Below are positions 28,843 through 58,296 of a stretch of 64,000 bases of DNA, in pieces; within the stretch, counting starts at the first letter, position 1, and each line of letters opens with the position of its first letter. This DNA comes from an uncultured candidate division Zixibacteria bacterium (lineage in GTDB: Bacteria > Zixibacteria > MSB-5A5 > GN15 > FEB-12). Both the position numbers and the translations under genes were made by a program. Under the pieces are notes generated by a model, which ran no database searches, was not told the DNA's origin, and saw only the letters and a list, made by a program, of their open reading frames with translations. The stretch is taken from NCBI GenBank assembly GCA_963735035.1, contig CAVTJJ010000003.1:544001-608000 (forward strand), in the 5' to 3' direction.

Positions 28843-30984
28843 ATGTCTTATAGGACGGCCGCACTTCTCTGTCTGGGCAGTCTGTTGATTGGGTCAGTCG
28901 GCTTAGCCGCCGACAAACAAGCCGTTCGGGTGGAGCGCATTGGTGACATTTCCCCGCAGGACATCATTCTGGCTCCTTCGCTGATCTCAGCCGACACTTG
29001 CACTGTCACCAGCTACACGACACTGACAATGCGCATCGACGGCTGGGTGACCGGATTTGAATTGTACAAGACTCTCATGAACCCTGCCACCCGGTGTCCC
29101 AATCCGTATCCATACACGGTGATGGCGGTCAATATGCCGATGGGCTTCAGCAAGGCCACTACTCTGACCGTCTCAGTCGATGTCGAAGCGGTCGATTCTA
29201 CGACCATTCCCGGATGCCCGGTGCCGGGGGTTCTCCTGGCGCTCTCTTCGGACTATACCGTTAGTATTCCCGGTTCGGGATACTACGACATCTGGATTCC
29301 GCTTGATACTCCCAAAGCGGTGACCGGCCCGTTCTTTGCCGGATTCTATATCGGCAACGCGGTCGACCCGGCCGCCCAGGTGGCGTTGCTTACGGATGAA
29401 AACCCGATTGCGTGCGCGTCCTACAACATTTGGAGTGACTCGATCGGGTGGGTGGATCTGGTCAATAACGATGTTTTCAATTTCCCCGGCACTCTTGGGA
29501 TGGAGGCAGCCGGCAATCCCGGCGGGAATCCGTCAATCGTCCCCGACCTGCAAATTGTTTCTCCCGCTGACGGCGACTTGCTCTATGGCAGCGCCGAGCT
29601 TTGGGCCTGGGATCGAGCGCTTACCGGCGCGGTAGAGTATGTGGTATTCGAATACTCCACCGGCGGCGTGTTCACCGAAATTGGCAGGGATTTCGACGGC
29701 ACTTCAACCAATCGCAACGGAGTCAACACGGCTGCCGGCGGTACCGGTTACAACGTCACCTGGGATTTCTCAGCCTTGCCTGAAGGGACCTATACGATTC
29801 GCGCTACGCAAGTACCCACGGCCGGGAACCCGACATCGTCGTCCATAAGTGTCTATCTGGAACCTACTCCACCGATAGCGAGGGTTGTCTCTCCCGCCGC
29901 CAGTACTCCCCTCTGTCTGCCGGTGGACATCTACATGAATTGCCCCGATGAAAACATGGCGTCCGTTGAAGTCTTCCGTCGCCAGGCGGCTTCGTCTGTG
30001 TCGGTCGGTGTCTCGCCGATGAATCAAAACACGGTCGGCGACGTCAACGGTAACGCAGCGGACGGAAATCATGTTTCCAGCGGCGAGTTCGGCGACTACT
30101 ACTCCGGACCGGTGGCTGCAACCGTCGCGGCTATGGTCTGGTCGAGTCGCGGCTATCCGGCACTGGTACGTCAGGGAACAACTTCTTTGACTGTGCAACA
30201 GGTAGCCGAAGGGTTTGCCACTTCTTTCGGCACCAGAACGAAGACGGGCACGTATGACGAAGCGATGTTGACCGGTCTCCGAAGTTATGCCGTCTCCAAA
30301 GGGGGCGGGTTCAATTTCGATTTCAAACGCAACCCTGCCTATTATGATCTTCGCATTTGGGTTGAAGACGAATCGCGCGTGGTTATGCTCGGACTGGGAG
30401 GAACTCCCGGCCTGTGGATCACGGTTGATGGCTTTGCCGTCTGGCAGCGCGCCGACTCGTCGTACCTGGTGAGTGTCGCCGACCCGCTGACTGGCACTAT
30501 TCTGGACGCCTCCTGGCGCAACCGGAATGGCTATAGCGAACTAAGCATAGGTGGAGTGTGGCAGCGGGTGGAGATCATGGTATCGATGTTCGCGTCGGCC
30601 TATCCGGTCAACCGGACTCTGATCGGAGTTGATATCAATGGAAATGATGGCTGGAATGTTCACTGGTCCACCATCGGAATCGGCGACGGCACCCGCCACT
30701 ACCTTCACACCAGCGCCGAGGACACCGACGGTCATACCGGTCCTTACACGACCCTGGTCGAACATAACTGCGCCACCGCCTACGTGCATGGTGATTTTAA
30801 CGGTGATCGTACGACGACGATGGCAGATCTGTACCTGTTGATCGATTTCATTACCGGAGCCGGTTCGGCACCCTCTGGCGGCGCGGCTCGCGCTGACTGC
30901 AACTGCGACAACGTGGTAAACATCGCCGACGTCATCTACTACATGAATTATCTGTATGGACAGGCCAGCCCGCCCTGTCGCTAA
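28843..30984 (+). CDS. Secreted protein with Ig-like domains, pseudo-C39-like domain and dockerin-like C-terminus
   Basis: AGGAG RBS, signal peptide, GDFNGD..MADLYLLIDF..ADCNCDNVVNIADVIY. Confidence 0.8.
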   Translation: MSYRTAALLCLGSLLIGSVGLAADKQAVRVERIGDISPQDIILAPSLISADTCTVTSYTTLTMRIDGWVTGFELYKTLMNPATRCPNPYPYTVMAVNMPMGFSKATTLTVSVDVEAVDSTTIPGCPVPGVLLALSSDYTVSIPGSGYYDIWIPLDTPKAVTGPFFAGFYIGNAVDPAAQVALLTDENPIACASYNIWSDSIGWVDLVNNDVFNFPGTLGMEAAGNPGGNPSIVPDLQIVSPADGDLLYGSAELWAWDRALTGAVEYVVFEYSTGGVFTEIGRDFDGTSTNRNGVNTAAGGTGYNVTWDFSALPEGTYTIRATQVPTAGNPTSSSISVYLEPTPPIARVVSPAASTPLCLPVDIYMNCPDENMASVEVFRRQAASSVSVGVSPMNQNTVGDVNGNAADGNHVSSGEFGDYYSGPVAATVAAMVWSSRGYPALVRQGTTSLTVQQVAEGFATSFGTRTKTGTYDEAMLTGLRSYAVSKGGGFNFDFKRNPAYYDLRIWVEDESRVVMLGLGGTPGLWITVDGFAVWQRADSSYLVSVADPLTGTILDASWRNRNGYSELSIGGVWQRVEIMVSMFASAYPVNRTLIGVDINGNDGWNVHWSTIGIGDGTRHYLHTSAEDTDGHTGPYTTLVEHNCATAYVHGDFNGDRTTTMADLYLLIDFITGAGSAPSGGAARADCNCDNVVNIADVIYYMNYLYGQASPPCR

Positions 30985-31006: not shown

Positions 31007-31033
31007 AAGGGCCGCTCAATAGAGCGGCCCTTT
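31007..31033. terminator. Intrinsic terminator between convergent genes, probably bidirectional
   Basis: AAGGGCCGCTC-aata-GAGCGGCCCTTTT. Confidence 0.8.
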
Positions 31034-31064: not shown

Positions 31065-32219
31065 CTACCAGCTCAGTTGCCAGTTGGCCGAATTAGGCAC
31101 CGATACTCGCTTGCGGAGAATCGTCCCGTCGCTACGGTTGATCGTAAACTCGTATGAGGGCGATCCGTTAAGCAGCGGAGAAGGGATCAGATCGAGATAG
31201 AAGTATCCGGACTCGTTCACAGTAGCAGTGACCGGAGTCGGAGAGATGATATTGCCGTTCTGCAGTGTCACTCCTCCGGGCAGCCGTGCAATAATTTTGG
31301 CATCGGTCTCGGCGCGACCGTCGGTGGTAAACAGATATCCATATACCCGGCACAACGACGGCGACGAAGGCGTCCCTGGATCAAACCAGGTCCCCGGAAC
31401 CGTGTCGGTTTTCGCGCCGGATATCGCGAGCGTATCGAAGGCTCCAAACATGAATCCCGGGGCCGTGGCAGTCACTAGGTAACTGCCGGCATCGAGGTTA
31501 GCGGTCGCATGTCCCGAAACATCTGTCACCGCCGACACGAGTAGAGCCGTCTGATCCAGATTTCGTATGCCGAGTGCAGCACCGGGTACTACGACGTGGT
31601 TGGACGTGTCAAACGCCAGCAACGTGACCGAATACGCTCCCGATCCGGCGATTCCGATAGCCTGATCCAGATCGACTGCGGTGTTATCTTCATCAAGGGA
31701 AGTCAACTGGCGGTCCGAATTGTCCCAGGGGTTATCATCGATCCCGGACACCGGCTCGTCCAGATTGTCGAGTCGCACCAGATAATCTGACAGTTCATCG
31801 CCGCCGAGTGTGAATGCAAAGCAATTCGGAGTCGGCAGACCACCGTCGCAATATAGGACCACCGTTCCGGTATAGAGACCCGCCCCTTCATCGTTGTCAA
31901 TGTCCGCGACCTGATCGACAAAGTAATAATATGTATGGCTCGCGAACCTCAGACTGTCAATATAGACGCTGCCGGCACCGGCGTTAGTCCAGCGGCAGGT
32001 ATATGAAACGGCGTCAGAGGTATTTTCCCCTTCGAACCAAACCAGCACATGACCAGAATCCGGCGCGACCGGCAAACCGGCGGAATCGAGCGCCTGAATC
32101 TCGAAACGAACGTAGTCAGCCGACGAGACCGCCCCCAGGTCCACGCCCGGCGCGACACCGGTTAGAATTGTGCACAGGAGTACACCAACGAATACCATCC
32201 TCATCTTCTTTGACCTCAC
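31065..32219 (-). CDS. Hypothetical protein with signal peptide and carboxypeptidase-regulatory-like (transthyretin-fold) repeats; last gene of the capsid cluster
   Basis: VPGAALGI..TDVSGHATANLDAGSYLVTATAPG; CRVYGYL..GYFYLDLIP. Confidence 0.65.
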   Translation of the reverse strand: MRSKKMRMVFVGVLLCTILTGVAPGVDLGAVSSADYVRFEIQALDSAGLPVAPDSGHVLVWFEGENTSDAVSYTCRWTNAGAGSVYIDSLRFASHTYYYFVDQVADIDNDEGAGLYTGTVVLYCDGGLPTPNCFAFTLGGDELSDYLVRLDNLDEPVSGIDDNPWDNSDRQLTSLDEDNTAVDLDQAIGIAGSGAYSVTLLAFDTSNHVVVPGAALGIRNLDQTALLVSAVTDVSGHATANLDAGSYLVTATAPGFMFGAFDTLAISGAKTDTVPGTWFDPGTPSSPSLCRVYGYLFTTDGRAETDAKIIARLPGGVTLQNGNIISPTPVTATVNESGYFYLDLIPSPLLNGSPSYEFTINRSDGTILRKRVSVPNSANWQLSW

Positions 32220-33277
32220 TGATTAGTAGTAAGCATGAACAGACGTCGCCGCGACGATGTTTCGGCTACCGCCGTGTGATAGTAGATTGTCACTTTGGGA
32301 CGATTGGCAGTTGTGGCGTTTTCAGACGACGCGAACACGGTGGAACCGTTTGTGCCAATTTCAACGAAGATCACACCGTAGGGCTGTTTGATGCCATCAT
32401 ACCAATCCTGAGCCAAATCGCCACCGACCCGAAAACGATACCAGGTCGGCGACGCCGATACGGTGACAGTGGTCATAGCCGTGGCCTTTCGGTCGGCCCC
32501 GGTACCGCTAAGACGATTCTGAGCGCCATGGTCGTTGACCGAATCGGCCATCTCTTTAGTCCATGCAGAATCATTGTGCCGCCAGTGGGTGTCATCGGCC
32601 GCACCTGATTCCACCGCGTTGTCACTGTTGCCTTCGTACCAGTCCTTCCACAACTCGAACATGCCAACGATTGCACCGGCCTGAGAGGTACAGTATAGAT
32701 CGATTGCCATCGAATCGATCACCTTGCCCATACCGACCGTATCCATGTTTGTGAACTTGAACAAGGATCGCCGGTTCAGTCCGGATAAATTCAGAACGGT
32801 CAACGTCTGCGAGGAGCCGAAATTGATATCATCGTAGTTCTGATACATCTTGGTGTCATATATGCCTGCCGAATTCTGGCCCTGAACGACCAGGCTGTCG
32901 GCTGCGGCGTGCGCCGAAATAATCGACAATGCCACAACGACGTATCGGAGCAACCTGAATAAGTGAACGTGACTTGTCACGGCTGAACCTTCCGACGTTT
33001 CGGACAGTGCCGGTTTCGGAGAAGCTTCGGCCTTCGTCCCAAACACTTCCTGTCTTACTTTCTGCACGGTCTTCCACAGTTCCTCATTGGACCTGTTCAC
33101 CGGCTGGATTTCTTTACACGATTGAATCATTTTGAGCAATGTCTCCGGTTTCTGGCTTTCGAAAATGACACGAGCGTTGTTGAGACACACCAGCATGATA
33201 TGGTCGTAAAGCAGGCGGACGTCTTCATCAACCGGCCGCTCGGTCTCGGCCTCACTTTTATCGGATTTCTTAATCAC
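32216..33277 (-). CDS. DNRLRE/CBM96-like domain protein (GTG 32980) apparently fused to a ~100-aa helical protein (GTG 33277)
   Basis: DTKMYQ..NFGSS..RSLFKF, FASSENATTANRPKVTI; internal signal peptide after GGAAGG and a GTGA overlap suggest two genes. Confidence 0.65.
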   Translation of the reverse strand: MIKKSDKSEAETERPVDEDVRLLYDHIMLVCLNNARVIFESQKPETLLKMIQSCKEIQPVNRSNEELWKTVQKVRQEVFGTKAEASPKPALSETSEGSAVTSHVHLFRLLRYVVVALSIISAHAAADSLVVQGQNSAGIYDTKMYQNYDDINFGSSQTLTVLNLSGLNRRSLFKFTNMDTVGMGKVIDSMAIDLYCTSQAGAIVGMFELWKDWYEGNSDNAVESGAADDTHWRHNDSAWTKEMADSVNDHGAQNRLSGTGADRKATAMTTVTVSASPTWYRFRVGGDLAQDWYDGIKQPYGVIFVEIGTNGSTVFASSENATTANRPKVTIYYHTAVAETSSRRRLFMLTTNQ

Positions 33278-33641
33278 CCAACTCCACAATCCACAGATCC
33301 ACCGTAATTGGCCCCGAGGCGGAGCTGTCCCGCGCTATCTTGAACCGATCAGCGGCTTCGCATCCGGTAACATACGCCGGCGCGCTTCCCTTGACCCGCA
33401 CGAATACCCTCGGGCTGTCCAATTGCGACGGCAGTGAATTGCCACGATGATCGGTCAGTTGACTGAACAACACTTCCTGCTGGCTCTCCCCGATCGACGC
33501 CGTACCGTAATAAACGGAGCGGGTGGATCCAATTTTCTCCAGGGCGAGATATTCATGCTCACCGATAGACGGTTGTCCCCAGACGGCAAGATCGGGCACG
33601 AACCAGGTTCTTCGCGAAGTCAAACGTTCCCATCCTGTCAT
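33270..33641 (-). CDS. Hypothetical protein in the capsid cluster
   Basis: AGGAG RBS; 123 aa; tightly packed in the operon. Confidence 0.65.
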   Translation of the reverse strand: MTGWERLTSRRTWFVPDLAVWGQPSIGEHEYLALEKIGSTRSVYYGTASIGESQQEVLFSQLTDHRGNSLPSQLDSPRVFVRVKGSAPAYVTGCEAADRFKIARDSSASGPITVDLWIVELGD

Positions 33642-33651
33642 GGTCTTCTCC

Positions 33652-34464
33652 TTAACTCCGCTGTGGATTTCGGGGACCGTTGAAAGGCGGGCGGAATCCT
33701 GTCAGCAGTTGATCGGATCGCCCGGCGTAGTCATCGGCCAGTTTGATCCAGACGGTGGCAATCTTGTCGGCACCGTTCTGCGAAGCCAGTTCGCGGCTGG
33801 CGGCCGCCCGGCAGACTATCTCCAGCGCCCGATACGTTGCGGCGGCACTCAGATTGGGATTAGCTTCGAATTCCCGCTCGGAATCCACCTCGGTCTGGAC
33901 CATACCGTTGGCCAGGGCGACAGCGTTCTCGATGATTTCATCGGTCACACTGACAAACACCGGTCGATAGTCGAGCCTGACCGTCTCCCCGGAGGCTATT
34001 TCGCCGCCCGTGAGACGCTTGATCTGTCCACCCGAAGCATCCAATCCATAATCACTCCCCTCTTCGTAGAGAGCGTAGGGCAGATACCATACGTGACGGT
34101 CTGCGTTGACGATAGACAGCCTCCGACTTTGGTCGAGAGGCGACCGCCCGCGTAGTCAACCACATAATCAACGTTCTCGACATAGACGGTGCCAAGCGAA
34201 CTGTCCGACGCCACCACAACTGAGTCGGGAATGATCATGCTCGGCGTGATCAAGGCCGAGCCGTCCGTGAATATGACACTCGAGCGTACAGGTGTGCGAG
34301 TCCGGATCGCCTTGACACGAACCGAGGTCGCGTCCACACCGCCGCCAAAGAAGCGAATGAACCCGGATCCAGACAATATCACCGAGTTGATCGACGACCT
34401 GCTCTTCGACCGGGTAAGGAATGACCAGATGCTGTCGGACCTGTTCCACGGTAGTGTATGACAT
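33652..34464 (-). CDS. Putative head-completion/connector protein (~270 aa), compensating +1/-1 frameshifts at ~34385 and ~34090
   Basis: N-terminal MSYTTVEQVRQHL and C-terminal IIENAVALANGMV..LSAAATYRALEI resemble gp6/gp15/Mu-gp36-type adaptors; three frames join into 813 nt. Confidence 0.5.
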
Positions 34465-34467
34465 AGT

Positions 34468-35889
34468 TTATCTCCTGAATGACATCATAGTGGCGTCGGT
34501 AGCGGCACTGATCTGACTGGCTACGGGCCCAGTGGAATAACCGGATACAACCTCGATCTTCACCCAGTACCGGCGTTGAGAATTGATGAGCCGCTTCTGC
34601 CAGTCATCAGGAAGAGCCGCGTAGTCGGTCCACATCAATATGTCGAAAGCGGACGATCCGAAGTTGGGATTCCCGTTGGCAGGAGTGAAAGCTTCCCAGT
34701 TGGCTCCGTCCCAATAGCTTACTTGCACCGAACCACCCACCCCGGTCTGTGAGAGTATCAGACGGGCCACGCGGAACGGCGCATCCATTCCTAGATACAG
34801 GATGTCCCCGGCGTCCTTCAGCAGGCAACCGGACGAAGCGTGATAGACATCAGCCACCTCCCAACCGGCCGCCTGAGACGTGACGTCCTGGTAGCCTTCG
34901 GACGCGGCGTGGTATAACAGAACTGAATCGAACTGGGCCGACCGGCGGTCGAGGACTTGCGACGAGCCAAAGCTGCCGGTACGGCGGTCACAGAAACGAG
35001 CCACTCTGGCTTCCCCGCCTATATCGTTCAGATAGACCACGGCCGCAATGTTACCCTCAAATAACACTTGTGGTGATGCTATCGGGTGTGACTCGATAAC
35101 CGCAACAGCTCCCCAGTTGTCACCGTCGGACTCGCGATAATAGAACTGGTCGCCGCACCAGGCGACTCCCAATCGATTATCCGCCCCAACAGCCGCGTCG
35201 AAACTACTCAGGCCGGAACCGTTGGCGACGGTAACGGCACTCGACCAGCTCCCGCCCGATAACGGGAGAGATCGGACATACACCGCCCAATCCTGGTCGT
35301 GGTACACTATGCGGACCCGGCTGGCATCAATAACCAGCTTCGACCAGGCGAACATCGAGCCGTTCGATATCTGATCACCGGCGTCATTAGCCCCGCTGCC
35401 CCAGGTCGCACCCGCGTCGTTGGAAGACTTGGCGTGAATCCATCGGTTCGGCGTAACATATCGGGAAAAGCTCACCCAGATTCGTCCGCCCGGCTCGATG
35501 GCAACTGATGGATCATAACACTGAGTACCGTTGTAAACCGTCACTTTGGCGCCGACCGACCAGAGTCCGCTTGCGAAAGTCAGCCTGCGAGTCACGAGAT
35601 AGCAGGTCGTCTGTTCGCTGTAGACCAGATGGATATCGCCATTGGGCGCCATTCGGGCATCAAAGCAACTGTCATCGGTATCCGAGACAACCGTCACGGG
35701 ACTAGACCATCCGGCCGCCGGCGCATCGGACCAAGCCAGCTTGATTTCACTCGGCGATGATTGAAACAATGCCACCCGTCGCCCGGAGTAAGTTCCGGTC
35801 GCGACCGTGAACAACCTGGCCTGCATGGACGTGCCCAGACCGTATGTCGCCGTGGTATCCGCAATTTTCTTCTGCATTGCGCCTCGCAT
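34468..35889 (-). CDS. Beta-propeller (BNR/Asp-box, sialidase-like) protein, putative particle appendage
   Basis: KSSNDAGATW Asp-box, repeated ..IHLVY/..WS blades, beta-rich C-terminal domain. Confidence 0.6.
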   Translation of the reverse strand: MRGAMQKKIADTTATYGLGTSMQARLFTVATGTYSGRRVALFQSSPSEIKLAWSDAPAAGWSSPVTVVSDTDDSCFDARMAPNGDIHLVYSEQTTCYLVTRRLTFASGLWSVGAKVTVYNGTQCYDPSVAIEPGGRIWVSFSRYVTPNRWIHAKSSNDAGATWGSGANDAGDQISNGSMFAWSKLVIDASRVRIVYHDQDWAVYVRSLPLSGGSWSSAVTVANGSGLSSFDAAVGADNRLGVAWCGDQFYYRESDGDNWGAVAVIESHPIASPQVLFEGNIAAVVYLNDIGGEARVARFCDRRTGSFGSSQVLDRRSAQFDSVLLYHAASEGYQDVTSQAAGWEVADVYHASSGCLLKDAGDILYLGMDAPFRVARLILSQTGVGGSVQVSYWDGANWEAFTPANGNPNFGSSAFDILMWTDYAALPDDWQKRLINSQRRYWVKIEVVSGYSTGPVASQISAATDATMMSFRR

Positions 35890-35890
35890 G

Positions 35891-35920
35891 AAAAGACGGG
35901 TCCGGTCGCCCGGACCCGTC
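35891..35920 (-). terminator. Intrinsic terminator directly after the major capsid gene
   Basis: GACGGGTCCGG-gcga-CCGGACCCGTC-TTTT on the minus strand. Confidence 0.8.
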
Positions 35921-35928
35921 GCTAATGA

Positions 35929-37032
35929 TTAGATGAAAGTGGTATCAAGAATGACCGACGCATCCCTTATGACCTTGGCGTAGGTCACCGATTCGGAGAT
36001 GACCGCCTCTTCGAACCGCTGCTCGATGATCTTGTCGTACTCGACCATGAGCGGCTGGGTGATGACTTCCTCGATGGCGAAACGGGTATCGAGTCCGATG
36101 ACAAAGTCGGTCGGGACTTCATCGGACCGCACCAGCGACGCTCCCAGCGGGCTGAACAGCTCACCGCTGTTCTGGAACCGATAACCGGCCAGCGGATCTT
36201 TGAACTCGTCCAGCGTGAGGATGGTCTTGAGCGTGTTGACATGACAGATGAGGCTGTTCATCTCGAACGGCGCGAATTGCGACCAGAGCGTGATCAGATC
36301 GTTGTAAGTCAGAGCGCCGGACGTGGCAGCGTTGACCGTCGCCGCCGGGTTAGCGTTGCCGTCGCCGTTGATCAGCGTATTGACCAGCATGCCGATCTTG
36401 TCGGTCTGCATGCGGAAGCCGATGTACCAGAGCAGGACTCGGAACTGCGACGTGCTCCGATAGCGCAACGCCTTGTAAGATGATTTCAGCGCCAGGCCGT
36501 AGTCGCGCACATTCACCGCGTGGTTCTGCTCGGTCACGATCAACTGCGGAATTTCGGCCCCTTCGCCGATCGGCCGCAGCGAGAAACGTTCCTTGCTGGT
36601 GGTGTCGATGTGGAATGGCGTGTAACGGTTAGTGTTGACGGTTGTGGTGTTGGCGATCAATTTGGCCAGCTCCGGCCGCATCGCCTGACCCTGCTTGATT
36701 TCGCGCAGGATGAACTCCGGCATCAGGACCGAAGCTTTCTGGAAGAACTGCTCGACCGTGGTCGGGTTCTTGCCGCCCAACTGTACTCCCGCCAGAAGGA
36801 GCTGCCGCTCGAACGCGTCGACGGGCGATCCAAGAGCGCTTGGGTCGTATTCGTCACACTCGAGCAGTTCCGAAAGAGTCAGACCGCGCGCCTCGGCTTG
36901 CAGATACAGGTCACGATCTATCTCGACCCCCGCTGCGCGACTGAGATCAGCGCGTGCGTTCGAGCCCGAACTGCGATCCTCATTCATAGAGGCGCCCACA
37001 GCGGCTGATTGCAGAAATTGATTGAAATCCAT
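35929..37032 (-). CDS. Phage-type major capsid protein (HK97 fold)
   Basis: GGAGG RBS; VLMPEFI..IGEGAEIP..YGLALKSSY..LINGDG..VEYDKII pattern; position in the head module. Confidence 0.8.
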   Translation of the reverse strand: MDFNQFLQSAAVGASMNEDRSSGSNARADLSRAAGVEIDRDLYLQAEARGLTLSELLECDEYDPSALGSPVDAFERQLLLAGVQLGGKNPTTVEQFFQKASVLMPEFILREIKQGQAMRPELAKLIANTTTVNTNRYTPFHIDTTSKERFSLRPIGEGAEIPQLIVTEQNHAVNVRDYGLALKSSYKALRYRSTSQFRVLLWYIGFRMQTDKIGMLVNTLINGDGNANPAATVNAATSGALTYNDLITLWSQFAPFEMNSLICHVNTLKTILTLDEFKDPLAGYRFQNSGELFSPLGASLVRSDEVPTDFVIGLDTRFAIEEVITQPLMVEYDKIIEQRFEEAVISESVTYAKVIRDASVILDTTFI

Positions 37033-37042
37033 GGTTGCCTCC

Positions 37043-37465
37043 TTAGTTCAATAGAATGACACAGTCGGTCGTGCCGTTTACCGCGAGGACTGTGCCGCGA
37101 GCGATGTTTCCGCCGGCCGGATCATAGCCGGTCAGCACCGGCGCCTGTTTGACCGTCCCGTTGCCACCACCGACTACTCGATTGCCCACGGTCGGAACGG
37201 TTGCCGACACCGCCAGTCGACATATGCCGCCAATCTGGACCGTCGCCTGGCGCTGGCCGTTGTCGTTGTCAGACAACGTCAGACTGATCAGCTTGCCCAA
37301 CAATTGACCGTTGTTAGCCAACGGCCCGATTTCGTTGCTGCCGGTCAGCATGACCGGTTCGCCGAGATCGGCATCCTTGAGATCGTCCACGCCGGTGGTC
37401 TGGTGGACGCTGAACGTCGCCAGCACCGGGGCAATGGTCTCAAGGTCTTGATTTCTTACTGCCAT
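37043..37465 (-). CDS. Putative capsid decoration/cement protein
   Basis: Small Gly-rich beta protein (ATVQIGG, VGNRVVGGGNGTVK, RGTVLAV) immediately before the capsid gene. Confidence 0.6.
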   Translation of the reverse strand: MAVRNQDLETIAPVLATFSVHQTTGVDDLKDADLGEPVMLTGSNEIGPLANNGQLLGKLISLTLSDNDNGQRQATVQIGGICRLAVSATVPTVGNRVVGGGNGTVKQAPVLTGYDPAGGNIARGTVLAVNGTTDCVILLN

Positions 37466-37543
37466 AAATTGCTCCTGAAAGTTCTGAATTGTTTGAGTTC
37501 GATTGGGGTATGCGACCACATGATGCTATCGCGTTTCCCCGCA

Positions 37544-37963
37544 TTACCGGGCCGACGGCTGTGCCTTGGGCCCACTGTAATTGCGTGGTCCGAAACTGCC
37601 GGGGAAACAATCCCGGAATCGGGCGGCGACACGACGATGCGTTTCCAGCAGGCGCGACGGCGTCTGTGTCGCCAGATCGTCGATGAGCGCCGCCGCTTCT
37701 TCCCATCGCTCCCGCTTCCGATCGACCGCCGCCACCGCCTTGATCATGCCGGCGACGCGTTGCTCGATATCCTGTCGCAATACGGCATGGCCTTCAGCCA
37801 ATTCCGCCAACCCGTTCAGGGTGGCACACATGGCGCGGAGACGGCTCTGAAGTTCATCGAAGTCGAGCCGTGCGAGGCTGGCTTCGTCCAGCAGACTGAC
37901 CACGCTCTCGAAATAGGCAATTTCGTTCTTAATGTTTTCCAAGGTTCTCTCCCGAGTATTCAA
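37544..37963 (-). CDS. Helical hypothetical protein (possible scaffold)
   Basis: Coiled-coil-like, lies between protease-like and capsid genes. Confidence 0.5.
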   Translation of the reverse strand: MNTRERTLENIKNEIAYFESVVSLLDEASLARLDFDELQSRLRAMCATLNGLAELAEGHAVLRQDIEQRVAGMIKAVAAVDRKRERWEEAAALIDDLATQTPSRLLETHRRVAARFRDCFPGSFGPRNYSGPKAQPSAR

Positions 37964-38240
37964 CCAGATAGTCTTCTATGCGAATGAGGCGGGCTTCGAC
38001 ATCCGAGGAGAAGCGAAAGAACTGTTCTTTGCTGACCGTACCTTCCTTGAGCAGAACTTCGATACTCGCTAATCTCTTGTCGAGCGTTCCCACCACGGCA
38101 CCTTCCGCCTTGGCTGCCAATTCAACTTTCAACGATTGAATCGTCATGAAGTAGGCTGCCGCGATCCCCAGAATGACCGAGAGCAGATTGATCCACCAGC
38201 TATGCAGGCGGAAGGTCGATTCGGAATTGTCACTGCTCAT
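37929..38240 (-). CDS. Small single-TM coiled-coil protein (holin-like?)
   Basis: WWINLLSVILGIAAAYFMTI TM, then VEARLIRIE coiled coil; ATGA overlap. Confidence 0.55.
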   Translation of the reverse strand: MSSDNSESTFRLHSWWINLLSVILGIAAAYFMTIQSLKVELAAKAEGAVVGTLDKRLASIEVLLKEGTVSKEQFFRFSSDVEARLIRIEDYLVEYSGENLGKH

Positions 38241-39793
38241 GCTGCTTCTCCTGCGTTCGTGCCTTCGGACAAGCGACCGAACAGGAAGTGATCTTCCCCT
38301 TTCAGCTTGATCGGGCGCAGAACAAACGAACCAGTCAGGTCGCCGGACAAATTGAATCGCCAGGCGTCGCCTTCTTGAGTTATGCGGTTGAGATGCCCGG
38401 TAAGAGTTCTTCCCCTCCAGACTGATCCTGGTAGCGGCCCTGATCGCCTGGCCAGGAAACGCTTCCCTGATGTCAGTTTGCTAAGGTCGAAGTCTGCCAG
38501 GTCTAATATCAGCGGGGCGATGTCTCCCCTGCCCAAAGTTGAACCACTTGATCGCAGAGTAAGATGTGCCAGACCATCACCGAGCCTGAGAGTAAGCTCA
38601 GAAGAAAATAAACGTCGCCGATTCTGACTTGGCGGACGATACCAATAGCCTTTGCCGGCAACCAGGGCAGTCGCCTGTGCACCGACCGGATGAATCTCAA
38701 CCCCGTCTTTGGTCATGACTTCCATGACAGCGTGCTCAAGTCGTTCGCGGGTCGCGATACGATAGGGCATCAGTCGAATTTCGTTTCTCGATCTTGAGGT
38801 TACACGGGGCAGCGTCACCATGCCCTGGCTGGGGAGAAGATGAAGCACTAGCCGCGTAACCGGACTGGTCCGACCTTCCAGATAGTCTTCCAACTGTTCA
38901 ACGGAGCAACGTTCTTTGCCGCGCTGTCCCACCAGAATACCGAGTAGTGATTCGCACCAGCGCAGCCCGATCGGGCCAAAATGATCGGACCGGCGAATCG
39001 GCTTTCCGTCCAACTGTGTCAGGGTAAGTCTATCCCCGTCTATCGCTGCAGATACCTGAAGTCCTACGTAACGTGGTATCACTAAGTAATCGGAACTCCC
39101 ACCGATATCGGCGAGGCTCAACACGGGTTCAACCGTCCATTCCGGACTCGCTATGACTGAGCTTTCGATATCGCCAGTCGTATCGCCGAGTTCTTTGACG
39201 ACCGCCGTGTTCGGAACCGCTCCCCGGTAGACCAGCGATGTTTCGAGAACCCGCTCGACCTGGCGATAGTTGAAATGACACGGTTCGGACGAGCCGGCAT
39301 GGTCGTATGACTCAAACGGCTGATGTTGACAGCGACGGATATCCTTGCCGCAGATGGAGCATTCCGGCAGATGGAAAGTGAACGCGATCGAACATTCCTT
39401 GTAGATGCCCCCGTCGAGATTGGCGCAGAACTCTTCGGCCCGGTCAGCCAGCTTCAGCCAGTAGAAATAGCTCTTCACCCAGGGACGTCCGTCCCGGTCA
39501 ACGGTCGTAGCGTGAAACGTTCGCGCTACCGGAAGTTGGTCTTTGCGATGTCCCACGAGAACCGGCGAGTCCACCAGAAGTTGGGCGAGTCCCGAATGCT
39601 CCTCAACCGGGAACCGGCCTCCGAAAGAGTTGACCTGGTCTGATACAATGTACATCGCCCTGATGTAGACGTCATCCGCCGATACCCGGGCCGGCGGCTT
39701 GATATTGACATTAATCAACTCCACCAACTCTGCCGGTATTTCCTGTCCCGGTTCGGCCAGTTCCGCTACTACCCTACCCATGCTCAGGGTCAT
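38237..39793 (-). CDS. Prohead protease-like protein with Cys/His finger, fused to degenerate ATP-dependent ligase and LigD-phosphoesterase-like domains
   Basis: GGAGG RBS; VLVGH, GGIYKECSIAF, CSICGKD..CQH, ETSLVYRGAVP; C-terminal half YLVIPRYVG..IDGDRLTL and FNLSGDLTGSFVLR. Confidence 0.6.
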   Translation of the reverse strand: MTLSMGRVVAELAEPGQEIPAELVELINVNIKPPARVSADDVYIRAMYIVSDQVNSFGGRFPVEEHSGLAQLLVDSPVLVGHRKDQLPVARTFHATTVDRDGRPWVKSYFYWLKLADRAEEFCANLDGGIYKECSIAFTFHLPECSICGKDIRRCQHQPFESYDHAGSSEPCHFNYRQVERVLETSLVYRGAVPNTAVVKELGDTTGDIESSVIASPEWTVEPVLSLADIGGSSDYLVIPRYVGLQVSAAIDGDRLTLTQLDGKPIRRSDHFGPIGLRWCESLLGILVGQRGKERCSVEQLEDYLEGRTSPVTRLVLHLLPSQGMVTLPRVTSRSRNEIRLMPYRIATRERLEHAVMEVMTKDGVEIHPVGAQATALVAGKGYWYRPPSQNRRRLFSSELTLRLGDGLAHLTLRSSGSTLGRGDIAPLILDLADFDLSKLTSGKRFLARRSGPLPGSVWRGRTLTGHLNRITQEGDAWRFNLSGDLTGSFVLRPIKLKGEDHFLFGRLSEGTNAGEAA

Positions 39794-39977
39794 CTATACC
39801 TCCACGTATGCATCTGCTCAAGGGGACAAATGTGCAATCTGCACTAAGTTAATACCGAAAGTGTGCAGACCATTTCAGAGAGGGGATTAATCCGTTTGGA
39901 GTAATTGGCTCTAGTTGTCAATGACTATCTTATTGCCCAGCAGTGCGTTCGCTATGCGCGAATCACCAAGAAGAAAC

Positions 39978-39993
39978 AGGCACGACCTTTGCT
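39978..39993 (+). promoter_or_regulatory. Sigma54 -24/-12 promoter of the PEP-CTERM gene
   Basis: aGGCACGacctTTGCT matches TGGCACG-N4-TTGCW; inverted repeat GTGCA-atc-TGCAC at 39832-39844 is a possible enhancer. Confidence 0.7.
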
Positions 39994-40043
39994 TAAACCT
40001 CGCCGAAGCCGCGCAACAATCGGCTCTGAAAGGTGAAAAGAAT

Positions 40044-40421
40044 ATGACACTGTATCGCAGTCGTACCAGCCAGCCACTCAAGTGGATTGTTGCTCTCTTC
40101 GTTTTCGCCCTCGTGATGGGAGTGACTTTCTCTGACGTCTATGGCCAGGACCATCACAACGGCGGCAAGCCGGGTGACAACAACTTTCACGGCGACCGTG
40201 GCAAGAATGACGATCATAACGGTGGCCACTATGGTAACAATGGTGGCAACGGCGGCGGCAACAACGGCGACCATGGAAATGGTGGCGGTGGAGACAATGG
40301 CGGCAACGGCGGCAATGATAACCCGGCCCCGTCTTCCGTTCCTGAACCGGGCACGTTGATTCTTCTCGCCGGTGGATTGAGCGCTCTTTATGTAGCTCGT
40401 CGGAACAAGTCAGTTAAGTAA
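40044..40421 (+). CDS. Small Gly/Asn/His-rich PEP-CTERM protein
   Basis: Signal peptide, low-complexity core, VPEPGTLILLAGGLSALYVARR. Confidence 0.92.
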   Translation: MTLYRSRTSQPLKWIVALFVFALVMGVTFSDVYGQDHHNGGKPGDNNFHGDRGKNDDHNGGHYGNNGGNGGGNNGDHGNGGGGDNGGNGGNDNPAPSSVPEPGTLILLAGGLSALYVARRNKSVK

Positions 40422-40505
40422 TCGAAGATATAGATCCCCAATCCCTCCCTTTAACGCCTTCCGGTCATACTTGAACCGGAGGGCGTTTTGCGTTTGGTCG
40501 ATCTC

Positions 40506-41852
40506 TCATACTGCTCCCACCCGAGGTGACGGCGAAAACACCGGCGAACTTCTTAACGGCCACAGGGCCAGACCCAGCGCCATGAGGGCATCGCATTCGT
40601 TGTTGTCGTCCCATCGCGCGGCCCGAAGTTCTGATTCAAGCGACCACGACCTTCCCGGACCATCCGGCAATTCCCAGCGATCATAGATGATCGTCTTCCG
40701 CGCGTGCCACAGCTCGACGTTGGTCAGAAGCTCGGCTTTGGACGCCGCCGTGAATATGACCGCTTCGGGGCGGTAGTCGCGCAACTGCTCAACCACAACA
40801 TCCCCCAAACCGGTGGCATCGATCACCAGCCGCCCCGGATAGAGCTGCTGGCGCTGCCTTATCTTTTCGAGCACCACCACCCAGTCAAATTGCTTGAAGC
40901 GTTCGAGCGCCACTATGCGGGCGCGGCCGTCCTTCACTTCGACAGTAATACCCACGGTCGCGGTCTTCTTCCGCGCGAGGTCCCAGCCGGAAATGTAGCG
41001 GCAACTCTTCGGATCGACAATTGCCGACTCTTGTCGACCGGCATCCAGCGCAGCATCGACATACTCGCCTTTGAGTATTTCGCCTCCGGAATCCACGAAC
41101 TGCCCCATAATGTTCTGCTTCAGCCGGCTCTCGGAGAAGTACTTCACCCGCTCATCGAGAAAGTCTCGTGAGACATTCGGATTGTCACGACTGTCGCCGG
41201 ACTGAAAGTATCCGGGACGATTGCCTTCACTGATCTCGCGGGCGCGGCGATAGAACCAATTCTTGCCGTTCGGGGTCGAGACCAGATCGAGCCGCCCTTC
41301 ACGGTCGGCCAGCCGCATCAGGATGACTTCCTCGACCACATACTCCGGCGATGTTTCAAACGCAACTTCATCGAAAATGAACAGGTCGTAGTCGTTCCCA
41401 AGCAGATACTCGCCGCGATTCTGAGTCGTGCGGGCTTCTATGGTCGCGCCGTTGCCGAATGTAAGACAGGGAAACGGCGTCCAGACCAAATCAGACATCA
41501 GCGACGACACCAGCGGCGACTGGCGCAGCAGTCGCAGCACTTGACTGAACACCAAGTTAGCCTGTGGTTGGGTTATCGACGCCACCACCGCGCGATACCG
41601 CTGCGTATCATCGAACTTGAGAGGCCGCACGCGGTAGATAGCGCCATGAATGAGCTTCACCGCCGATACGAACGACTTCCCCCACCGGTTGCCGGTAACC
41701 AGAACATTCTCGCTCCGGGTCGATCCGTTTAGCCAGGCCTGTTGCCCCGGATGCAATTCGACTTCGAGAAAATGCCGCGCGAAGAATGTCGGGTCTTCCA
41801 GCCCGCGCCGCCAATCGTCGTAAGTCGGCGATGGGATTACAGCAGGGTCCAA
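40506..41852 (-). CDS. Terminase large subunit
   Basis: LHPGQ, Walker A GNRWGKS, Walker B FIFDE, STPNGKNWFY, nuclease GWDLA, IDATGLGD, CDALMALGLA; intact ORF. Confidence 0.92.
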   Translation of the reverse strand: MDPAVIPSPTYDDWRRGLEDPTFFARHFLEVELHPGQQAWLNGSTRSENVLVTGNRWGKSFVSAVKLIHGAIYRVRPLKFDDTQRYRAVVASITQPQANLVFSQVLRLLRQSPLVSSLMSDLVWTPFPCLTFGNGATIEARTTQNRGEYLLGNDYDLFIFDEVAFETSPEYVVEEVILMRLADREGRLDLVSTPNGKNWFYRRAREISEGNRPGYFQSGDSRDNPNVSRDFLDERVKYFSESRLKQNIMGQFVDSGGEILKGEYVDAALDAGRQESAIVDPKSCRYISGWDLARKKTATVGITVEVKDGRARIVALERFKQFDWVVVLEKIRQRQQLYPGRLVIDATGLGDVVVEQLRDYRPEAVIFTAASKAELLTNVELWHARKTIIYDRWELPDGPGRSWSLESELRAARWDDNNECDALMALGLALWPLRSSPVFSPSPRVGAV

Positions 41853-43106
41853 ATCTTTTCGCGCGCCTGTTCCTTGTCGATCAACCCGGCCTGATAGAGT
41901 TTCAGGACATTGTCCACCCGGCCGCTTTCCATTGCGAGATTATCCTTCGCCTGATACGCGAAAGCATTGTCGAACTCATACCGACAGCGGACGTTTATTC
42001 CCGCCAAAGCCAGGTCAATCCCGGCGATCCATTCGAGAAAACGAGCCACCTCGGCCTGCACCGAGCGGACCTGCCGCATGACCACATCGAATTTGAACCC
42101 CGACCAGGTCGTGGTCGCACCGTAGGAGTATCCGAGTAGATATGGGGCCAGATGCGTCCCGGCGCAAATCTCCTCGATCATCGACCGATGGCTCATGAAC
42201 CAACTGCTGGTCACATCGCGCGATTTCTCAGGCGCGACATGGCCGATCTCAACATTGTCCCAGGTGACCGGGTTGTCGTCGATCTCAAGTGTCTTGATCA
42301 TTCGCACGGTGGCGTCGAAATACCCGTTGATACGATCGGTGTAGGCACTGTCCGACTCACCCCCCATCCGCTCCGGCGGGGTGATCTTCACGTGCAGCCG
42401 ATGAAACCCGGAATTGTGGCTGGATCGGCGCATGTCGTCCACCAGTTGTTGCTCTACGTAAGACACGAACGGAATGGCTTGCAGAATCGACCGTCCAAAC
42501 GGCTGCGCGATTCCACCGTTGAACGGGACGTAGTAGAAATCGGGACGGTCCAGCGCTATCGTAGTGTGATCCAGTTCCAGCATCAGCCGTCTTTGGCCTG
42601 TGTCTTGATCCGCGCGAAGATTGATCGGATCGACCGGGATAAACTGATCGACCCCTTCGTCCCCATGCACGGTCAGGAATCCCGCGAAGATCCCGTCACG
42701 ATATAGCGACATGAACAGGTCCGGCAACAGACTGTCCAGGCCGATCCGATTCCCCGACGGATTCGTGTACATACGGCGTACTAATTGATCGAGTCGTTCC
42801 TGCGCTTTGGCGGAAGTACGGCCGTCATCGTTGTCCATAACCTTGAATCGCCCCGGCGCGGCCGACAATCGCACCCAGGTCCAGATGCAGGCATTGATGA
42901 CCGGAATCTGGTCGGTGAGGAAATCGATAGAGTAGTTTGCGCCAGCGTCCTGATTCGATGTCCTGATAACTCCATCGCAACACTGCTTCCATCTTGTCGG
43001 CGGTGGCAAATTTGTTTCGTTCCATCGGCTTGATCAGTGTGGCGTCACGAAGTTGATTCGCCGACAAACCTGTTCCGTTTGACGGCGCGTGCCCGATTTC
43101 ATGCAT
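41837..43106 (-). CDS. Phage portal-like protein, one frameshift at ~42937
   Basis: AGGGAG RBS and ATG 43106; IPVINACI, FIPVDP, PFGRSIL, EEICAG..LAPYLLG, LYQAGLIDKEQAR; adjacent to TerL. Confidence 0.75.
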
Positions 43107-43229: not shown

Positions 43230-43955
43230 CGTCCCGCCGCGGCGGATCCACATCTGCCAGCTCGTACTACTACTGTCCCATGTCTGTCTTGCCCCGGTTT
43301 AGGCGGGCATCAAAGGGTGTCAATTCCCTCTTTAATCGGCAGGGTTCCAACCCTGCCGTGCGCATTCCGGCAGGCACAGAGGCCTGCCGATTAAAGTAAA
43401 CACTCTCTTGCCCCGCTTCAGGCAGGGCACCCAGGGGTTGTTTGATCGGTAGCCAGTAGGTCAGGAGCCCTTAGGCTCCTGACAATCGACATTCATGCTT
43501 TGCGCGAATCTCAATTGTAGGTCAGGCCTACTCGGGGCCTGACGTTTTGACTATCCGGCAGATGTGGGCATCTGCCGGGCACGGTTGCGCGAATGTCAGG
43601 CGTCAAGTCCGCCTGACCTACCGGTCTGTAAAATTTCGGTACCCCACCCAACGTGCCTGTTGAACCCCCCCCCGAACGTTGTTGCGTCAGGTCTTGCGCC
43701 GCCACAGGCGGCGTGTGACCTGACGCGTTGCAGCGACTTAGGGAATCACTATCGTGCGTCGAATGATACGAATTGAGGCAAGACAGGCTTTTTTAACAGG
43801 CCCCAACGGGTGGGATTATTAGTTGTCGAGATCGATCTCCTTCGCGAAGACCCACCTGTTAGGTGGGGTACAAGTTGTAGGTCAGGCCTACTCGGCGGCC
43901 TCACATCTTCACCGTAATCCAACCCGAATGTCAGGCGTCAAGTACGCCTGATCGG
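43230..43955. repeat. Dense nested REP/REPIN/MITE mosaic
   Basis: REPIN 43517-43621 with nested CCGGCAGATG palindrome; further GTAGGTCAGG copies; MITE 43653-43803. Confidence 0.8.
43653..43803. mobile_element. MITE-like element, copy 2, with 4-bp target duplication
   Basis: TIRs GTGCCTGTTGAA / TTTAACAGGCCC flanked by CAAC (43649-43652 and 43804-43807). Confidence 0.72.
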
Positions 43956-44093
43956 GAGCCAGTAAAGGCCCAATAACCCCCCTCCTCGCCTCACCGGAAT
44001 CCGGTTGCCATCGCCGCCCTTCGTCGTTATCTTCCCCATCGTGTGGTTATCGGGGCGGCGGTATGACTCATAAACCGCGCCTCAAACGATTAA

Positions 44094-45326: not shown

Positions 45327-45583
45327 TCGTGGGCGGTTAGCCTGCCCCCGACTTGATCGGGGGTCCTCGTCTGCCCCTTCATGGTGCCCCAGCGCTCGCG
45401 CTGGGTCTTCTGGGTGGCCCACCATTTATGGTGGGGTCGAACAATTGATTCTTATTGACGCCGCAGCAATGCGGCGTTATTTTTTGGTATGCGAGGTCGA
45501 GGCGCGGGGTATAGCAACTGGAATACGGAAGCACTGGACGGCGCTGTTGGGTGCTCACTTGTTGACCCTTTGAGGGTTAACTG

Positions 45584-46051
45584 ATGTCACTAATCAAATG
45601 TCCGGATTGTAGTAGAAGCATCAGCGATGGTGCCATAGCTTGCCCAAACTGTGGGTGCAAACTTACTCCGGTCAATATCTCTAAAGGGAAAAAGGCCGCC
45701 GAAAGGGAGGCCATTTCCGGCATAGGTTGCCTCACAGTCATGGTGGTCTGCGCTGTCATTGTCGGCGCTATCTTATTTCTTAATCGTGGCGGGGAAAACG
45801 GACCAGACAAAATGGGAGCTTTTGTAATGAGCCAGAGCTTCGTTGAAGAACGGCTGAAAGCGCCTGCAACAGCAAATTTCTGCTCTTACGGTGATGCAAC
45901 GGTTACGGATCTGGGTGGAGGTCGATTCAAAGTATTGGCATACGTGGATGCTGAAAACAGTTTTGGAGCCAAACTCCGAAATCATTACACGTGCGTTTTG
46001 AAAAGCAGTGATGGCTCAACTTGGTCCCTTGAAAGTCTGGATATGCAGTAG
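45584..46051 (+). CDS. Zinc-ribbon membrane protein
   Basis: LIKCPDC..SDGAIACPNCG, TM helix, LKAPATANF..VDAENSFGA. Confidence 0.75.
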   Translation: MSLIKCPDCSRSISDGAIACPNCGCKLTPVNISKGKKAAEREAISGIGCLTVMVVCAVIVGAILFLNRGGENGPDKMGAFVMSQSFVEERLKAPATANFCSYGDATVTDLGGGRFKVLAYVDAENSFGAKLRNHYTCVLKSSDGSTWSLESLDMQ

Positions 46052-46125
46052 TTTCCTGGTGGCGCAATTTCTCTGATCAGCAACTGGCATATAAGCAGGG
46101 TTTTGAATCAGGTTAAGAGGGTTCA

Positions 46126-46746: not shown

Positions 46747-46909
46747 ATCAAATCCGGTAGCCGACAGCTCTGCTGTGGGAGTTTTGGCATGTGAGCGCTG
46801 TCGGGTTTCGTCGCCGTTCGCTTCGCGAACGTGTCCGTGTTTCCGAGCTCGCAGGGAACCGGGACTGTTTCGAGAATGTTTGACGAACAGACAAGCAGGA
46901 GTATACAAT

Positions 46910-56680: not shown

Positions 56681-56691
56681 TACATAATCAG

Positions 56692-58161: not shown

Positions 58162-58296
58162 CCAATACGTTACCTTCTTGTCGTGCAACGGAAGGGCCGG
58201 GACAACACCCGACCCTTCTTTTTTGTGTTTGTGGTTGGTACCCTGGTATTTAGTAAGTGATTGCGCCGCTTTGCCTACTGCCCTTATATTTGCGGT

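Follow-up and report, generated by a model that had tools for sequence, protein, structure and literature searches.

A candidate domesticated capsid gene cluster of Zixibacteria, with a predicted neck and no recognised tail tube

Whether a run of phage head genes in a bacterial chromosome is the remnant of a prophage, a device that borrows tails from other phages or a structure that the host keeps for its own use is the question raised by the locus considered here. The stretch analysed (hereafter the window) comprises 64,000 nucleotides from an uncultured candidate division Zixibacteria bacterium (GTDB lineage Bacteria; Zixibacteria; MSB-5A5; GN15; FEB-12; assembly GCA_963735035.1, contig CAVTJJ010000003.1, positions 544,001 to 608,000 of the forward strand), whose genome of 3.6 Mb is assembled in six contigs and is 97% complete. 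Its minus strand carries, among other phage-like genes, those for a portal protein, a large terminase (TerL), a capsid cement protein and a major capsid protein (MCP), and a previous interpretation made from the letters alone, the sequence-only reading, had proposed a host-maintained DNA-packaging system. We consider the cluster to be probably a domesticated virus-derived particle system (a viriform), similar to a gene transfer agent (GTA), of independent origin and possessing a neck but no tail tube. The evidence for domestication is strong, and we infer the function of the particle. The system appears to have been acquired from a tailed phage by the common ancestor of the sampled Zixibacteria and vertically inherited since.

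Inheritance and selection across Zixibacteria

Of 41 close relatives, 38 carry the MCP gene; it was detected in 145 of the 151 genomes of a class-wide sample and in 192 of 201 sampled across the phylum, the last two samples covering the same 19 families, and it nearly always occurs as a single copy in a single open frame. TerL was recovered in 145 of the 151 genomes. Two ordinary genes of the window were, in contrast, found in only one and in none of ten same-family genomes. Identity to the MCP of the window is 82-86% within the genus, 67-79% within the family, 63-73% within the order and 55-65% within the class.

MCP and RpoB trees, built for 24 genomes of 15 families, have 19 of 21 splits in common, and every family with several members is monophyletic in both; the unshared splits have supports of 54 and 58 in the MCP tree and of 27 and 86 in the RpoB tree. 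Pairwise distances of the two proteins are correlated (r = 0.86), with a mean MCP to RpoB ratio of 1.23. The cement protein diverges at a similar pace (1.22), followed by TerL (1.6), the portal (1.9) and, at about 2, the beta-propeller protein, the head-tail adaptor and the small protein g14. The ratio of nonsynonymous to synonymous substitution rates (dN/dS) was measured for nine cluster genes in the closest pair of genomes (G091 and G140; dS 0.8-1.3), and is lowest in the cement protein (0.031) and the MCP (0.048), with 0.052 for rpoB; the seven other genes gave 0.07-0.13, including 0.089 for the propeller, 0.095 for the adaptor, 0.116 for g14 and 0.073 for the secreted protein g16. These values are strong evidence that the cluster genes are under strong purifying selection and have been vertically inherited over the phylum.

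The sequence-only reading had set its host-maintained system against patchy presence at variable loci, neutral dN/dS and close homologs within complete tailed prophages, and had suggested that the MCP and species phylogenies be compared. Presence proved near-universal, with flanks shared across the order, the MCP tree mirrors that of RpoB, and no dN/dS value (0.03-0.13) is neutral; the closest relatives among phages and viral contigs are only 33-37% identical in the MCP and have a different set of neck and tail genes. The outcome for all three of these conditions, together with the co-phylogeny, speaks against a decaying remnant and supports a host-maintained, domesticated system.

Layout and predicted functions of the cluster

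The features of the locus are given below in window coordinates, with the E-values of library matches after the family names; lengths are in amino acids (aa), and ORF stands for open reading frame.

31065..43106, minus strand: whole cluster, an almost gap-free gene run of ~12 kb
41837..43106, minus strand: portal protein (phrog_3753, 1.1e-15); orthologues of 413-460 aa
40506..41852, minus strand: TerL, intact (phrog_2, 3.1e-34; PF03237, 3.7e-6)
39993..40274, minus strand: hydrophobic 93-aa ORF, not conserved and of doubtful status (weak DUF4010/DUF3180 matches only)
38237..39793, minus strand: head protein g5, 518 aa (phrog_16951, an unnamed phage family, 8.1e-19)
37929..38240, minus strand: g6, small one-pass membrane protein (transmembrane helix N-terminal) that also has a coiled coil
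37544..37963, minus strand: g7, helical protein of 139 aa, placed where a scaffolding protein would be expected
37043..37465, minus strand: g8, predicted capsid cement (decoration) protein, 140 aa (protein atlas, DUF2190/Phage_cement_2; phrog_4588)
35929..37032, minus strand: MCP, 367 aa (phrog_3922, 2.7e-59; PF25209, 2.3e-6)
35895..35920, minus strand: GC-rich hairpin (11-bp stem, 9 GC pairs) and T tail, directly 3' of the MCP stop
34468..35889, minus strand: g10, cytoplasmic beta-propeller, 473 aa (AlphaFold2 model and structural comparison)
33652..34464, minus strand: predicted head-tail adaptor, 270 aa in relatives, here in three ORFs (two frame breaks)
33270..33641, minus strand: g14, 123 aa, all-beta by the look of its sequence, present in 24 of 24 genomes
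32216..33289, minus strand: g15, a small basic helical part (by alignment) and a DNRLRE/CBM96-type domain (DNRLRE, 4.9e-11)
31065..32219, minus strand: g16, secreted protein with signal peptide (PF13620, 5.5e-7, below the Pfam cut-off)
31007..31032, minus strand: terminator-like hairpin (11-bp stem, 8 GC pairs) at the cluster end
28843..30984, plus strand: secreted protein with immunoglobulin (Ig)-like and dockerin domains, convergent neighbour (Dockerin_1, 5.6e-6)
43280..43950, no strand: repeat mosaic, short and both direct and inverted, 5' of the portal gene (families D3, D5, D6, I1, I2, I5-I7)
58261..61900, no strand: ancestral right-hand flank, with a PD-(D/E)XK nuclease, a 191-aa gene and a tetratricopeptide repeat (TPR) gene (gene clustering and Pfam)

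All the genes that the sequence-only reading had listed in its minus-strand run of about 12 kb were found in place, and its boundaries correspond to the terminator-like hairpin (31032-31007) on one side and to the direct and inverted repeats (43280-43950) on the other. The host-like composition that it had judged by eye is also borne out: GC content is 0.55-0.59 in the cluster, as in the flanks, and the GC content of third codon positions (GC3) in the MCP gene is 0.77, like that of well-adapted host genes. The portal gene precedes that of TerL, as it had noted, both here and across the loci compared, and the TerL ORF overlaps the portal stop codon. The hairpin after the MCP gene could be a terminator or an attenuator; 18 of 24 genomes have a hairpin of -20 kcal/mol or lower 3' of the MCP stop, counted with no shuffle control and not conserved in sequence, and a T run follows in just four of the 24. 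A search for a promoter motif shared by the regions upstream of the portal, g5, g8 and g10 genes gave no non-coding 7-mer clearly above shuffles, the string AATATAG being found in 5 of 17 portal upstream regions.

In the 20 loci of 15 families whose gene order was compared, the conserved succession is portal, TerL, g5, g6, (g7), cement, MCP, propeller, adaptor, g14, small basic protein, one or more variable genes and g16. Adaptor and g14 are exchanged in families f18, f11 and f5, secreted surface-protein genes of the up713-like type are inserted between MCP, propeller and adaptor in family f10 (L016, L022), and copies of the same type lie between portal and g5 in genome G064 (L113). The packaging pair, portal and TerL, stands 91-109 kb from the head genes in G083, G140 and G063, which are one- or two-contig assemblies, and on other contigs than the head genes in several further genomes, both halves being intact in all these cases. 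Families f1, f2 and f4 have common flanks, namely the PD-(D/E)XK nuclease, the 191-aa gene and the TPR gene on the portal side and the secreted Ig-like and dockerin protein on the other. In the window, about 15 kb (43280-58260) now separate the portal gene from those flank genes, which adjoin it in eight related genomes. This segment starts at the repeat mosaic and includes genes for a cysteine desulfurase, an M6 protease of the type IX secretion system, TldD/PmbA, an omptin-like protein and a glycosyltransferase.

Among the head and packaging proteins, TerL is unbroken, as previously claimed, and all 16 aligned sequences conserve its Walker A (GNRWGKS) and Walker B (D161-E162) motifs, the coupling motif STPNG and the nuclease aspartates D291, D345, D351 and D421. 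Protein g5 is conserved in its N-terminal ~200 aa, with H82, S135 and a CxxC...CxH motif invariant in 22 sequences. We read this domain, with moderate confidence, as a putative maturation protease because a relative in the phage contig L125 weakly matches the XkdF-type family Peptidase_S78_2 (PF14550, 4.7e-4, below the Pfam cut-off); the protein-atlas score for an S78 prohead protease is 0.76. The rest of g5 preserves a trace of another activity: in L024 (family f17) and in the phage-like IMG/VR contigs L117 and L118 it contains an intact ATP-dependent DNA ligase domain with the KYDG motif (PF01068, 6e-29 to 6e-23), to which L024 adds a LigD-type phosphoesterase domain. In the window the ligase domain is degenerate, the lysine of KxDG being replaced (PRYVG) and the codon bias of the region weak (GC3 0.53); this lysine is lost in most Zixibacteria, and in several families the region is deleted. 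The distribution of intact domains (f17, L117, L118) and of degenerate or deleted ones elsewhere thus suggests that the ancestor carried a head-protein-ligase fusion, since decayed (window 38237-39793; L024:10683-13016; L117:5967-8735; L118:1759-4158). A capsid-protease-ligase fusion is not known to have been described before.

A member of the g6 family, which has no Pfam or PHROG match, was recovered in 19 of 24 genomes, and this small membrane protein could be a holin-like or membrane-tethering factor. The hydrophobic 93-aa ORF (39993-40274) is a different one; it has no relative among the 20 loci compared and lies over a GGC/AAC repeat. The g7 family is confined to one order, where 9 of the 24 genomes have it, and similar-sized ORFs occupy its position in many other loci; a scaffolding role is suggested by this position. 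Protein g8, present in 24 of 24 genomes, is assigned as a predicted cement protein because the protein atlas places it with the DUF2190 (score 0.98) and Phage_cement_2 and Phage_cement clusters (0.95-0.96); it also matches phrog_4588 ('virion structural protein', 9.8e-7), and has no Pfam match at 0.01. As for the MCP, the copy of the single-contig genome G014 (L011, G014:C1:1805309-1806403) is cut short by a TAA some 18 codons ahead of the usual stop.

Below the portal, the 270-aa protein that the sequence-only reading had called connector-like does match phage neck and adaptor chains. The AlphaFold2 model of its G002 orthologue (pLDDT 84.5) was compared with about 48,000 solved chains by VIA, without Foldseek, and the top matches were those of phiCD508, P74-26, T4 gp13/14, Mu, HK97 gp6, SU10 and Carin1 (Z 7-9); the adaptor of the GTA of Rhodobacter capsulatus (RcGTA; 6tba_2A) is also among them (Z 7.2). 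The first eight comprise six phage neck, connector or adaptor chains and the SU10 podovirus tail chain at Z 7.8-8.9, values that are modest for helical folds, so that the assignment is based on the agreement among the hits and on where the gene lies. We therefore take the protein to be a predicted head-tail adaptor with an HK97 gp6/SPP1 gp15-like fold. It carries a beta domain inserted at residues ~20-170, which matches a phi812 baseplate chain (Foldseek, domain level, 1.1e-6) and phrog_807, 'major tail protein with Ig-like domain' (3.2e-6). For g14 no Pfam, PHROG, PDB-sequence or hhalign match was obtained, and its position suggests a second neck or stopper layer. Profile searches of PDB sequences with the adaptor, g14 and cement alignments gave nothing useful, and hhalign comparisons of adaptor, g14 and small basic protein with ten ORF families that follow the MCP in phage relatives gave nothing significant, the best being the helical part of the adaptor against family c0 (E = 0.0044, probability 8%).

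The beta-propeller protein g10 was modelled with high scores (pLDDT 92.2, pTM 0.88) as a propeller followed by a C-terminal beta-sandwich. Its best solved matches by VIA are seven-bladed PLL/PHL lectins, GH145 and PL25 (Z 25-27), and its matches among the viral models of BFVD are phage structural or fibre proteins bearing a propeller or a sialidase; a profile search of PDB sequences gave 4irt_A as best match (E = 0.0017). On these models g10 is a candidate receptor-binding appendage, lectin- or sialidase-like. In Foldseek the phage portal-tail chain 9efk_M ranks 7th. A role as a podovirus nozzle of the T7 gp12 type was considered, and it is neither supported nor excluded by the VIA top 50, made up of lectins, glycoside hydrolases and generic propellers. 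Prediction of an adaptor-propeller complex returned a score of 0.00 and no interaction verdict. The description of the cluster as head-only holds in that no tail tube, sheath or tape measure was found; taken strictly it is too strong, because a head-tail adaptor is present and the propeller may be an appendage.

At the distal end, the accessory genes of the sequence-only reading are present, and the last two (31065-33289) carry signal peptides and are not likely to encode virion parts. In g15, a small basic helical protein, encoded in relatives by a separate gene of ~90-130 aa, takes up the first ~100 codons and is here fused in frame, the C-terminal two thirds being a DNRLRE/CBM96-type domain with its own signal peptide (CBM96 was found in G002), so that the two form a single 357-aa ORF in the window. 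In G002 (L111:13764-14875) the small basic (116 aa) and CBM96/DNRLRE (317 aa) genes overlap by about 190 nt in different frames. The small basic family occurs in 21 of 24 genomes (examples at L019:3379-3798, L023:15004-15426 and window 32990-33289) and usually follows g14; its location in families f18 and f11, where portal and TerL enclose it, makes it a weak candidate for a small terminase. Protein g16, found in 22 of 24 genomes, begins with a clear signal peptide, is signal-like by a crude test in 19 of 22 orthologues and is conserved in its C-terminal ~190 aa, including a CarboxypepD_reg-like sandwich. Of 18 proteins scanned that are variable or occupy the g16 position, 2 have disaggregatase-type repeats. 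The C-terminal part of g15, g16 and the variable genes are read as exported glycan-binding proteins and not likely virion parts. Signal-like N-termini are found, by contrast, in only 0-2 of 24 members of the sets for MCP, cement, propeller, adaptor and g14, the propeller having one. The convergent neighbour (28843-30984) belongs to a multi-copy family, its frame being supported by GC3 and its further matches (DUF7451, Big_3_3, Big_7) being weak; 15 of 24 genomes have a member of this family at the locus, with an unproven linkage to the capsid system. Elsewhere in the window, the stretch of lowest GC content (0.50) holds a gene for a protein of 1,199 aa (7564-11163, minus strand) in which FG-GAP repeats, a beta-helix and an Ig domain are combined.

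Scans with Pfam, PHROGs and NCBIfam of the cluster and of 51 other window ORFs gave no integrase, repressor, replication or lysis family, in agreement with the earlier statement on the first three, and no tRNA was found in the window. In the 97%-complete genome there is no member of the Phage_sheath_1, PhageMin_Tail or Phage_capsid (PF05065) families. Apart from one contig, the nearest MCPs in the phage collection and in IMG/VR are 25-37% identical, and the closest relatives there are complete siphovirus-like genomes. The exception, L116, is an 11-kb IMG/VR contig with an MCP 56% identical and the Zixibacteria gene order, probably a chromosomal fragment. A profile scan of 85 viral or non-Zixibacteria-query loci, two of which (L107 and L116) are of the Zixibacteria type, matched MCP in 82, portal in 77, g5 in 69, g8 in 33 and TerL in 7, so that the module common with phages consists of TerL, portal, a g5-like protein, a cement-like protein and MCP; the closest portals and g5 proteins are those of L117-L119. 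After the MCP, the phage relatives carry small neck genes, a gene of ~250 aa and an ORF of ~1,800 aa, the latter a putative tape measure by size and position. The propeller, the 270-aa adaptor, g14 and g16 were not found in the phage loci, except for the adaptor in L127 (7e-59); besides L127, the adaptor has in IMG/VR a single weak domain match, on a 184-kb contig. As far as search results show, the full-text literature holds no description of a Zixibacteria capsid system.

From this gene set a working scheme can be proposed. The protease-like g5 and the helical g7 would help the MCP to assemble on the portal, and the cement protein would stabilise the shell. TerL would cut DNA and pump it in, most likely host DNA and by headful; a DNA-filled capsid is suggested because portal and TerL are kept with intact motifs even when unlinked from the capsid genes, and host DNA because there is no phage genome to package. 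The adaptor and g14 would close the portal, and the cytoplasmic lectin-like g10 would sit on the neck or shell and bind a surface glycan of the recipient, the combination of neck adaptor and propeller being the reason to picture a closed, glycan-binding head. Release or uptake may be the task of the membrane protein g6 and of the secreted g16. Packaging and transfer of DNA by the particle are what we infer from the genes.

Frame breaks, losses and competing explanations

As assembled, the cluster is not fully intact, with one frame break in the portal gene and two in the adaptor gene. The portal gene starts with an ATG preceded by an AAGGGAG ribosome-binding site, and its first ~66 codons (43106 to ~42921) are in another frame than the rest, with the junction near 42921; the split was seen by tblastn with the portals of G002, G161 and G014. 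The adaptor gene is broken near 34385 and 34085, the segment between the breaks is in another frame and 64% identical to G002, and the gene as assembled stops after ~100 codons. The same gene is split once in the same-genus genome G001, and is intact in all 20 loci L011-L030. No break was seen in rpoB of this assembly or in any window ORF longer than 1 kb. Three breaks in a 12-kb cluster against one detected in the other 52 kb might reflect a real local decay; detection is, however, weaker outside the cluster, and the background rate is uncertain because the two possibly split host genes tried were found in just 1 of 10 and 0 of 10 same-family genomes. This copy may be impaired, or the assembly may be wrong at the portal and adaptor sites. 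The one break detected outside the cluster is in the TPR gene of the window (60412-61900, minus strand), which is split into overlapping ORFs of 231 and 292 aa, being a single ORF of 505-541 aa in relatives. As a separate observation, rpoB of G113 (L219/L220, G113:C4:919343-923111) occupies two adjacent frames, a sign of probable indel errors in this five-contig assembly.

Parts of the system have been lost in several lineages. Genome G024 (L114) keeps portal, TerL, g5 and g16 and has lost g6 to g15; G077 (L115) has only portal and TerL within 20 kb around TerL, and a search for its MCP gave no match; G110 is without MCP, TerL and portal. The complete 2.1-Mb genome G064 (L113/L018) retains portal, MCP, cement, propeller and adaptor, and TerL was not found in it even by profile search. 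Two of its ORFs, of 419 and 469 aa, were examined as divergent portal and TerL and belong instead to the up713-like surface-protein family.

Several points weigh against a DNA-transferring particle kept by the host. Particle, packaged DNA and expression are predictions made from the genes. Neither a tail tube nor a tape measure was found, nor an endolysin or a recognisable small terminase, which leaves the entry of DNA into a recipient without explanation, and the placing of the propeller on the particle is a guess. The last conserved genes (g16 and the C-terminal part of g15) encode secreted proteins and not virion parts. The independent losses in G024, G064 and G110 make the capsid system dispensable, and the excess of frame breaks in this copy adds to these points.

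The frame breaks of portal and adaptor, the split adaptor of G001 and the lineages that have lost parts speak for a decaying prophage remnant without function. Such a remnant could, however, not have stayed whole in 18 of the 19 sampled GTDB families: the genes are single-copy across the phylum, co-diverge with RpoB at dN/dS of 0.03-0.13 and have an ameliorated composition, and all 20 other loci have an unbroken adaptor gene, so that this explanation is contradicted at the phylum level and appears highly improbable. A tail-less capsid borrowing the tails of infecting phages, that is, a chromosomally fixed analogue of capsid-forming phage-inducible chromosomal islands (cf-PICIs) which would spread host DNA or sabotage the phage, is in keeping with a gene content of head, packaging and neck only, with the lack of any tube, sheath or tape-measure family in the genome and with an adaptor that implies something docking below the portal. 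Yet inheritance is strictly vertical, integrase, primase and excision functions are absent, the adaptor, which has an unusual inserted domain, is very rare in viral contigs, and compatibility with the tails of changing phages would, by reasoning, be hard to maintain across a phylum; we regard tail borrowing as improbable.

More can be said for a domesticated capsid with a use other than transfer, whether a DNA-containing decoy or anti-phage device, a means of DNA export or storage, or a surface-binding particle whose lectin propeller would be more important than its cargo. The shell is extremely conserved (1.23 times RpoB for the MCP, dN/dS of 0.031 for the cement protein), TerL and portal diverging at 1.6-1.9 times RpoB, G064 keeps MCP, cement, propeller and adaptor without TerL, and membrane and secreted proteins are conserved neighbours. 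On the other hand, 145 of 151 genomes have kept TerL and portal, their motifs intact, including genomes where the pair is no longer linked to the head genes, which argues for DNA packaging as part of the selected function, and a non-transfer use is in our opinion rather unlikely. The GTA-like viriform remains the explanation we prefer.

Significance and relation to known systems

To our knowledge, GTAs are known from a handful of lineages, all with tails. If the GTA-like interpretation is true, the Zixibacteria cluster represents a second independent case, and capsid domestication would be recurrent and very old in bacteria. Here a capsid system is fixed across an entire uncultured phylum, with an MCP conserved almost as well as RpoB. 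A particle that carries DNA would have a new gene-transfer architecture, in which glycan-binding heads deliver DNA without a tail; one that carries none would be a new kind of portal-bearing bacterial organelle. We put forward only tentatively, and with some doubt, that this may be one of the oldest tamed bacterial viruses: a phylum-old capsid with a shell about as slow as RNA polymerase, no tail tube and a plugged neck that has a domain-bearing adaptor and a lectin-like propeller, derived from a phage with a head-protein-ligase fusion. The cluster can serve as a marker for Zixibacteria DNA in virus-size fractions, where virome surveys probably miscall it as a provirus (as L116 in IMG/VR), and it offers a concrete gene set for expression and imaging, with a bearing on how DNA-filled heads work without a tail.

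The sequence-only reading had held that the cluster fits neither RcGTA nor phage-inducible islands, and this is upheld by the lack of a PF05065 MCP in the one comparison and, in the other, by vertical inheritance, fixed flanks and the lack of integrase and replication genes. GTAs of the RcGTA type, in Alphaproteobacteria, are chromosomal head and packaging clusters without replication, integration or lysogeny genes, inherited vertically over a large clade under purifying selection, and the parts of the RcGTA gene set can lie at separate loci. The Zixibacteria system resembles them in all these respects: chromosomal phage-derived structural genes with none for replication, integration or lysogeny, vertical descent under purifying selection, and split loci. 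It differs in its MCP, which belongs to Phage_capsid_4 (PF25209)/phrog_3922, no PF05065 being present in the genome, and which points to an independent origin; in lacking tail tube, tape measure and head-spike genes and a recognisable small terminase; in placing portal before TerL; in having a cement protein, a propeller and a protease-ligase relic; and in a host range that corresponds to a whole phylum of the FCB group.

Capsid-forming islands are mobile and tail-less; their TerL, portal, protease, MCP and head-tail connectors are encoded together with integrase, replication and regulatory genes, and they use the tails of helper phages. The Zixibacteria cluster shares with them head, packaging and connector genes without a tail, whereas it has no integrase or replication genes, its flanks are fixed across the order and its inheritance is vertical. 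With the head modules of siphovirus or lambda-like phages (L170 and L147 in IMG/VR) it has homologous TerL, portal, g5-like, cement-like and MCP genes in common; the MCPs are, however, just 25-37% identical, and those phages are without propeller, g14, g16 and adaptor, save for the adaptor of L127. The marks of a defective prophage, that is, patchy occurrence, variable sites, neutral change and pseudogenes, are not seen here, save for the three frame breaks as assembled. Encapsulins, finally, are HK97-fold shells kept by the host, with no portal, terminase, cement protein or adaptor; the Zixibacteria cluster likewise appears to be an HK97-fold shell kept as a host structure, but one in which portal, TerL, cement and adaptor are all present.

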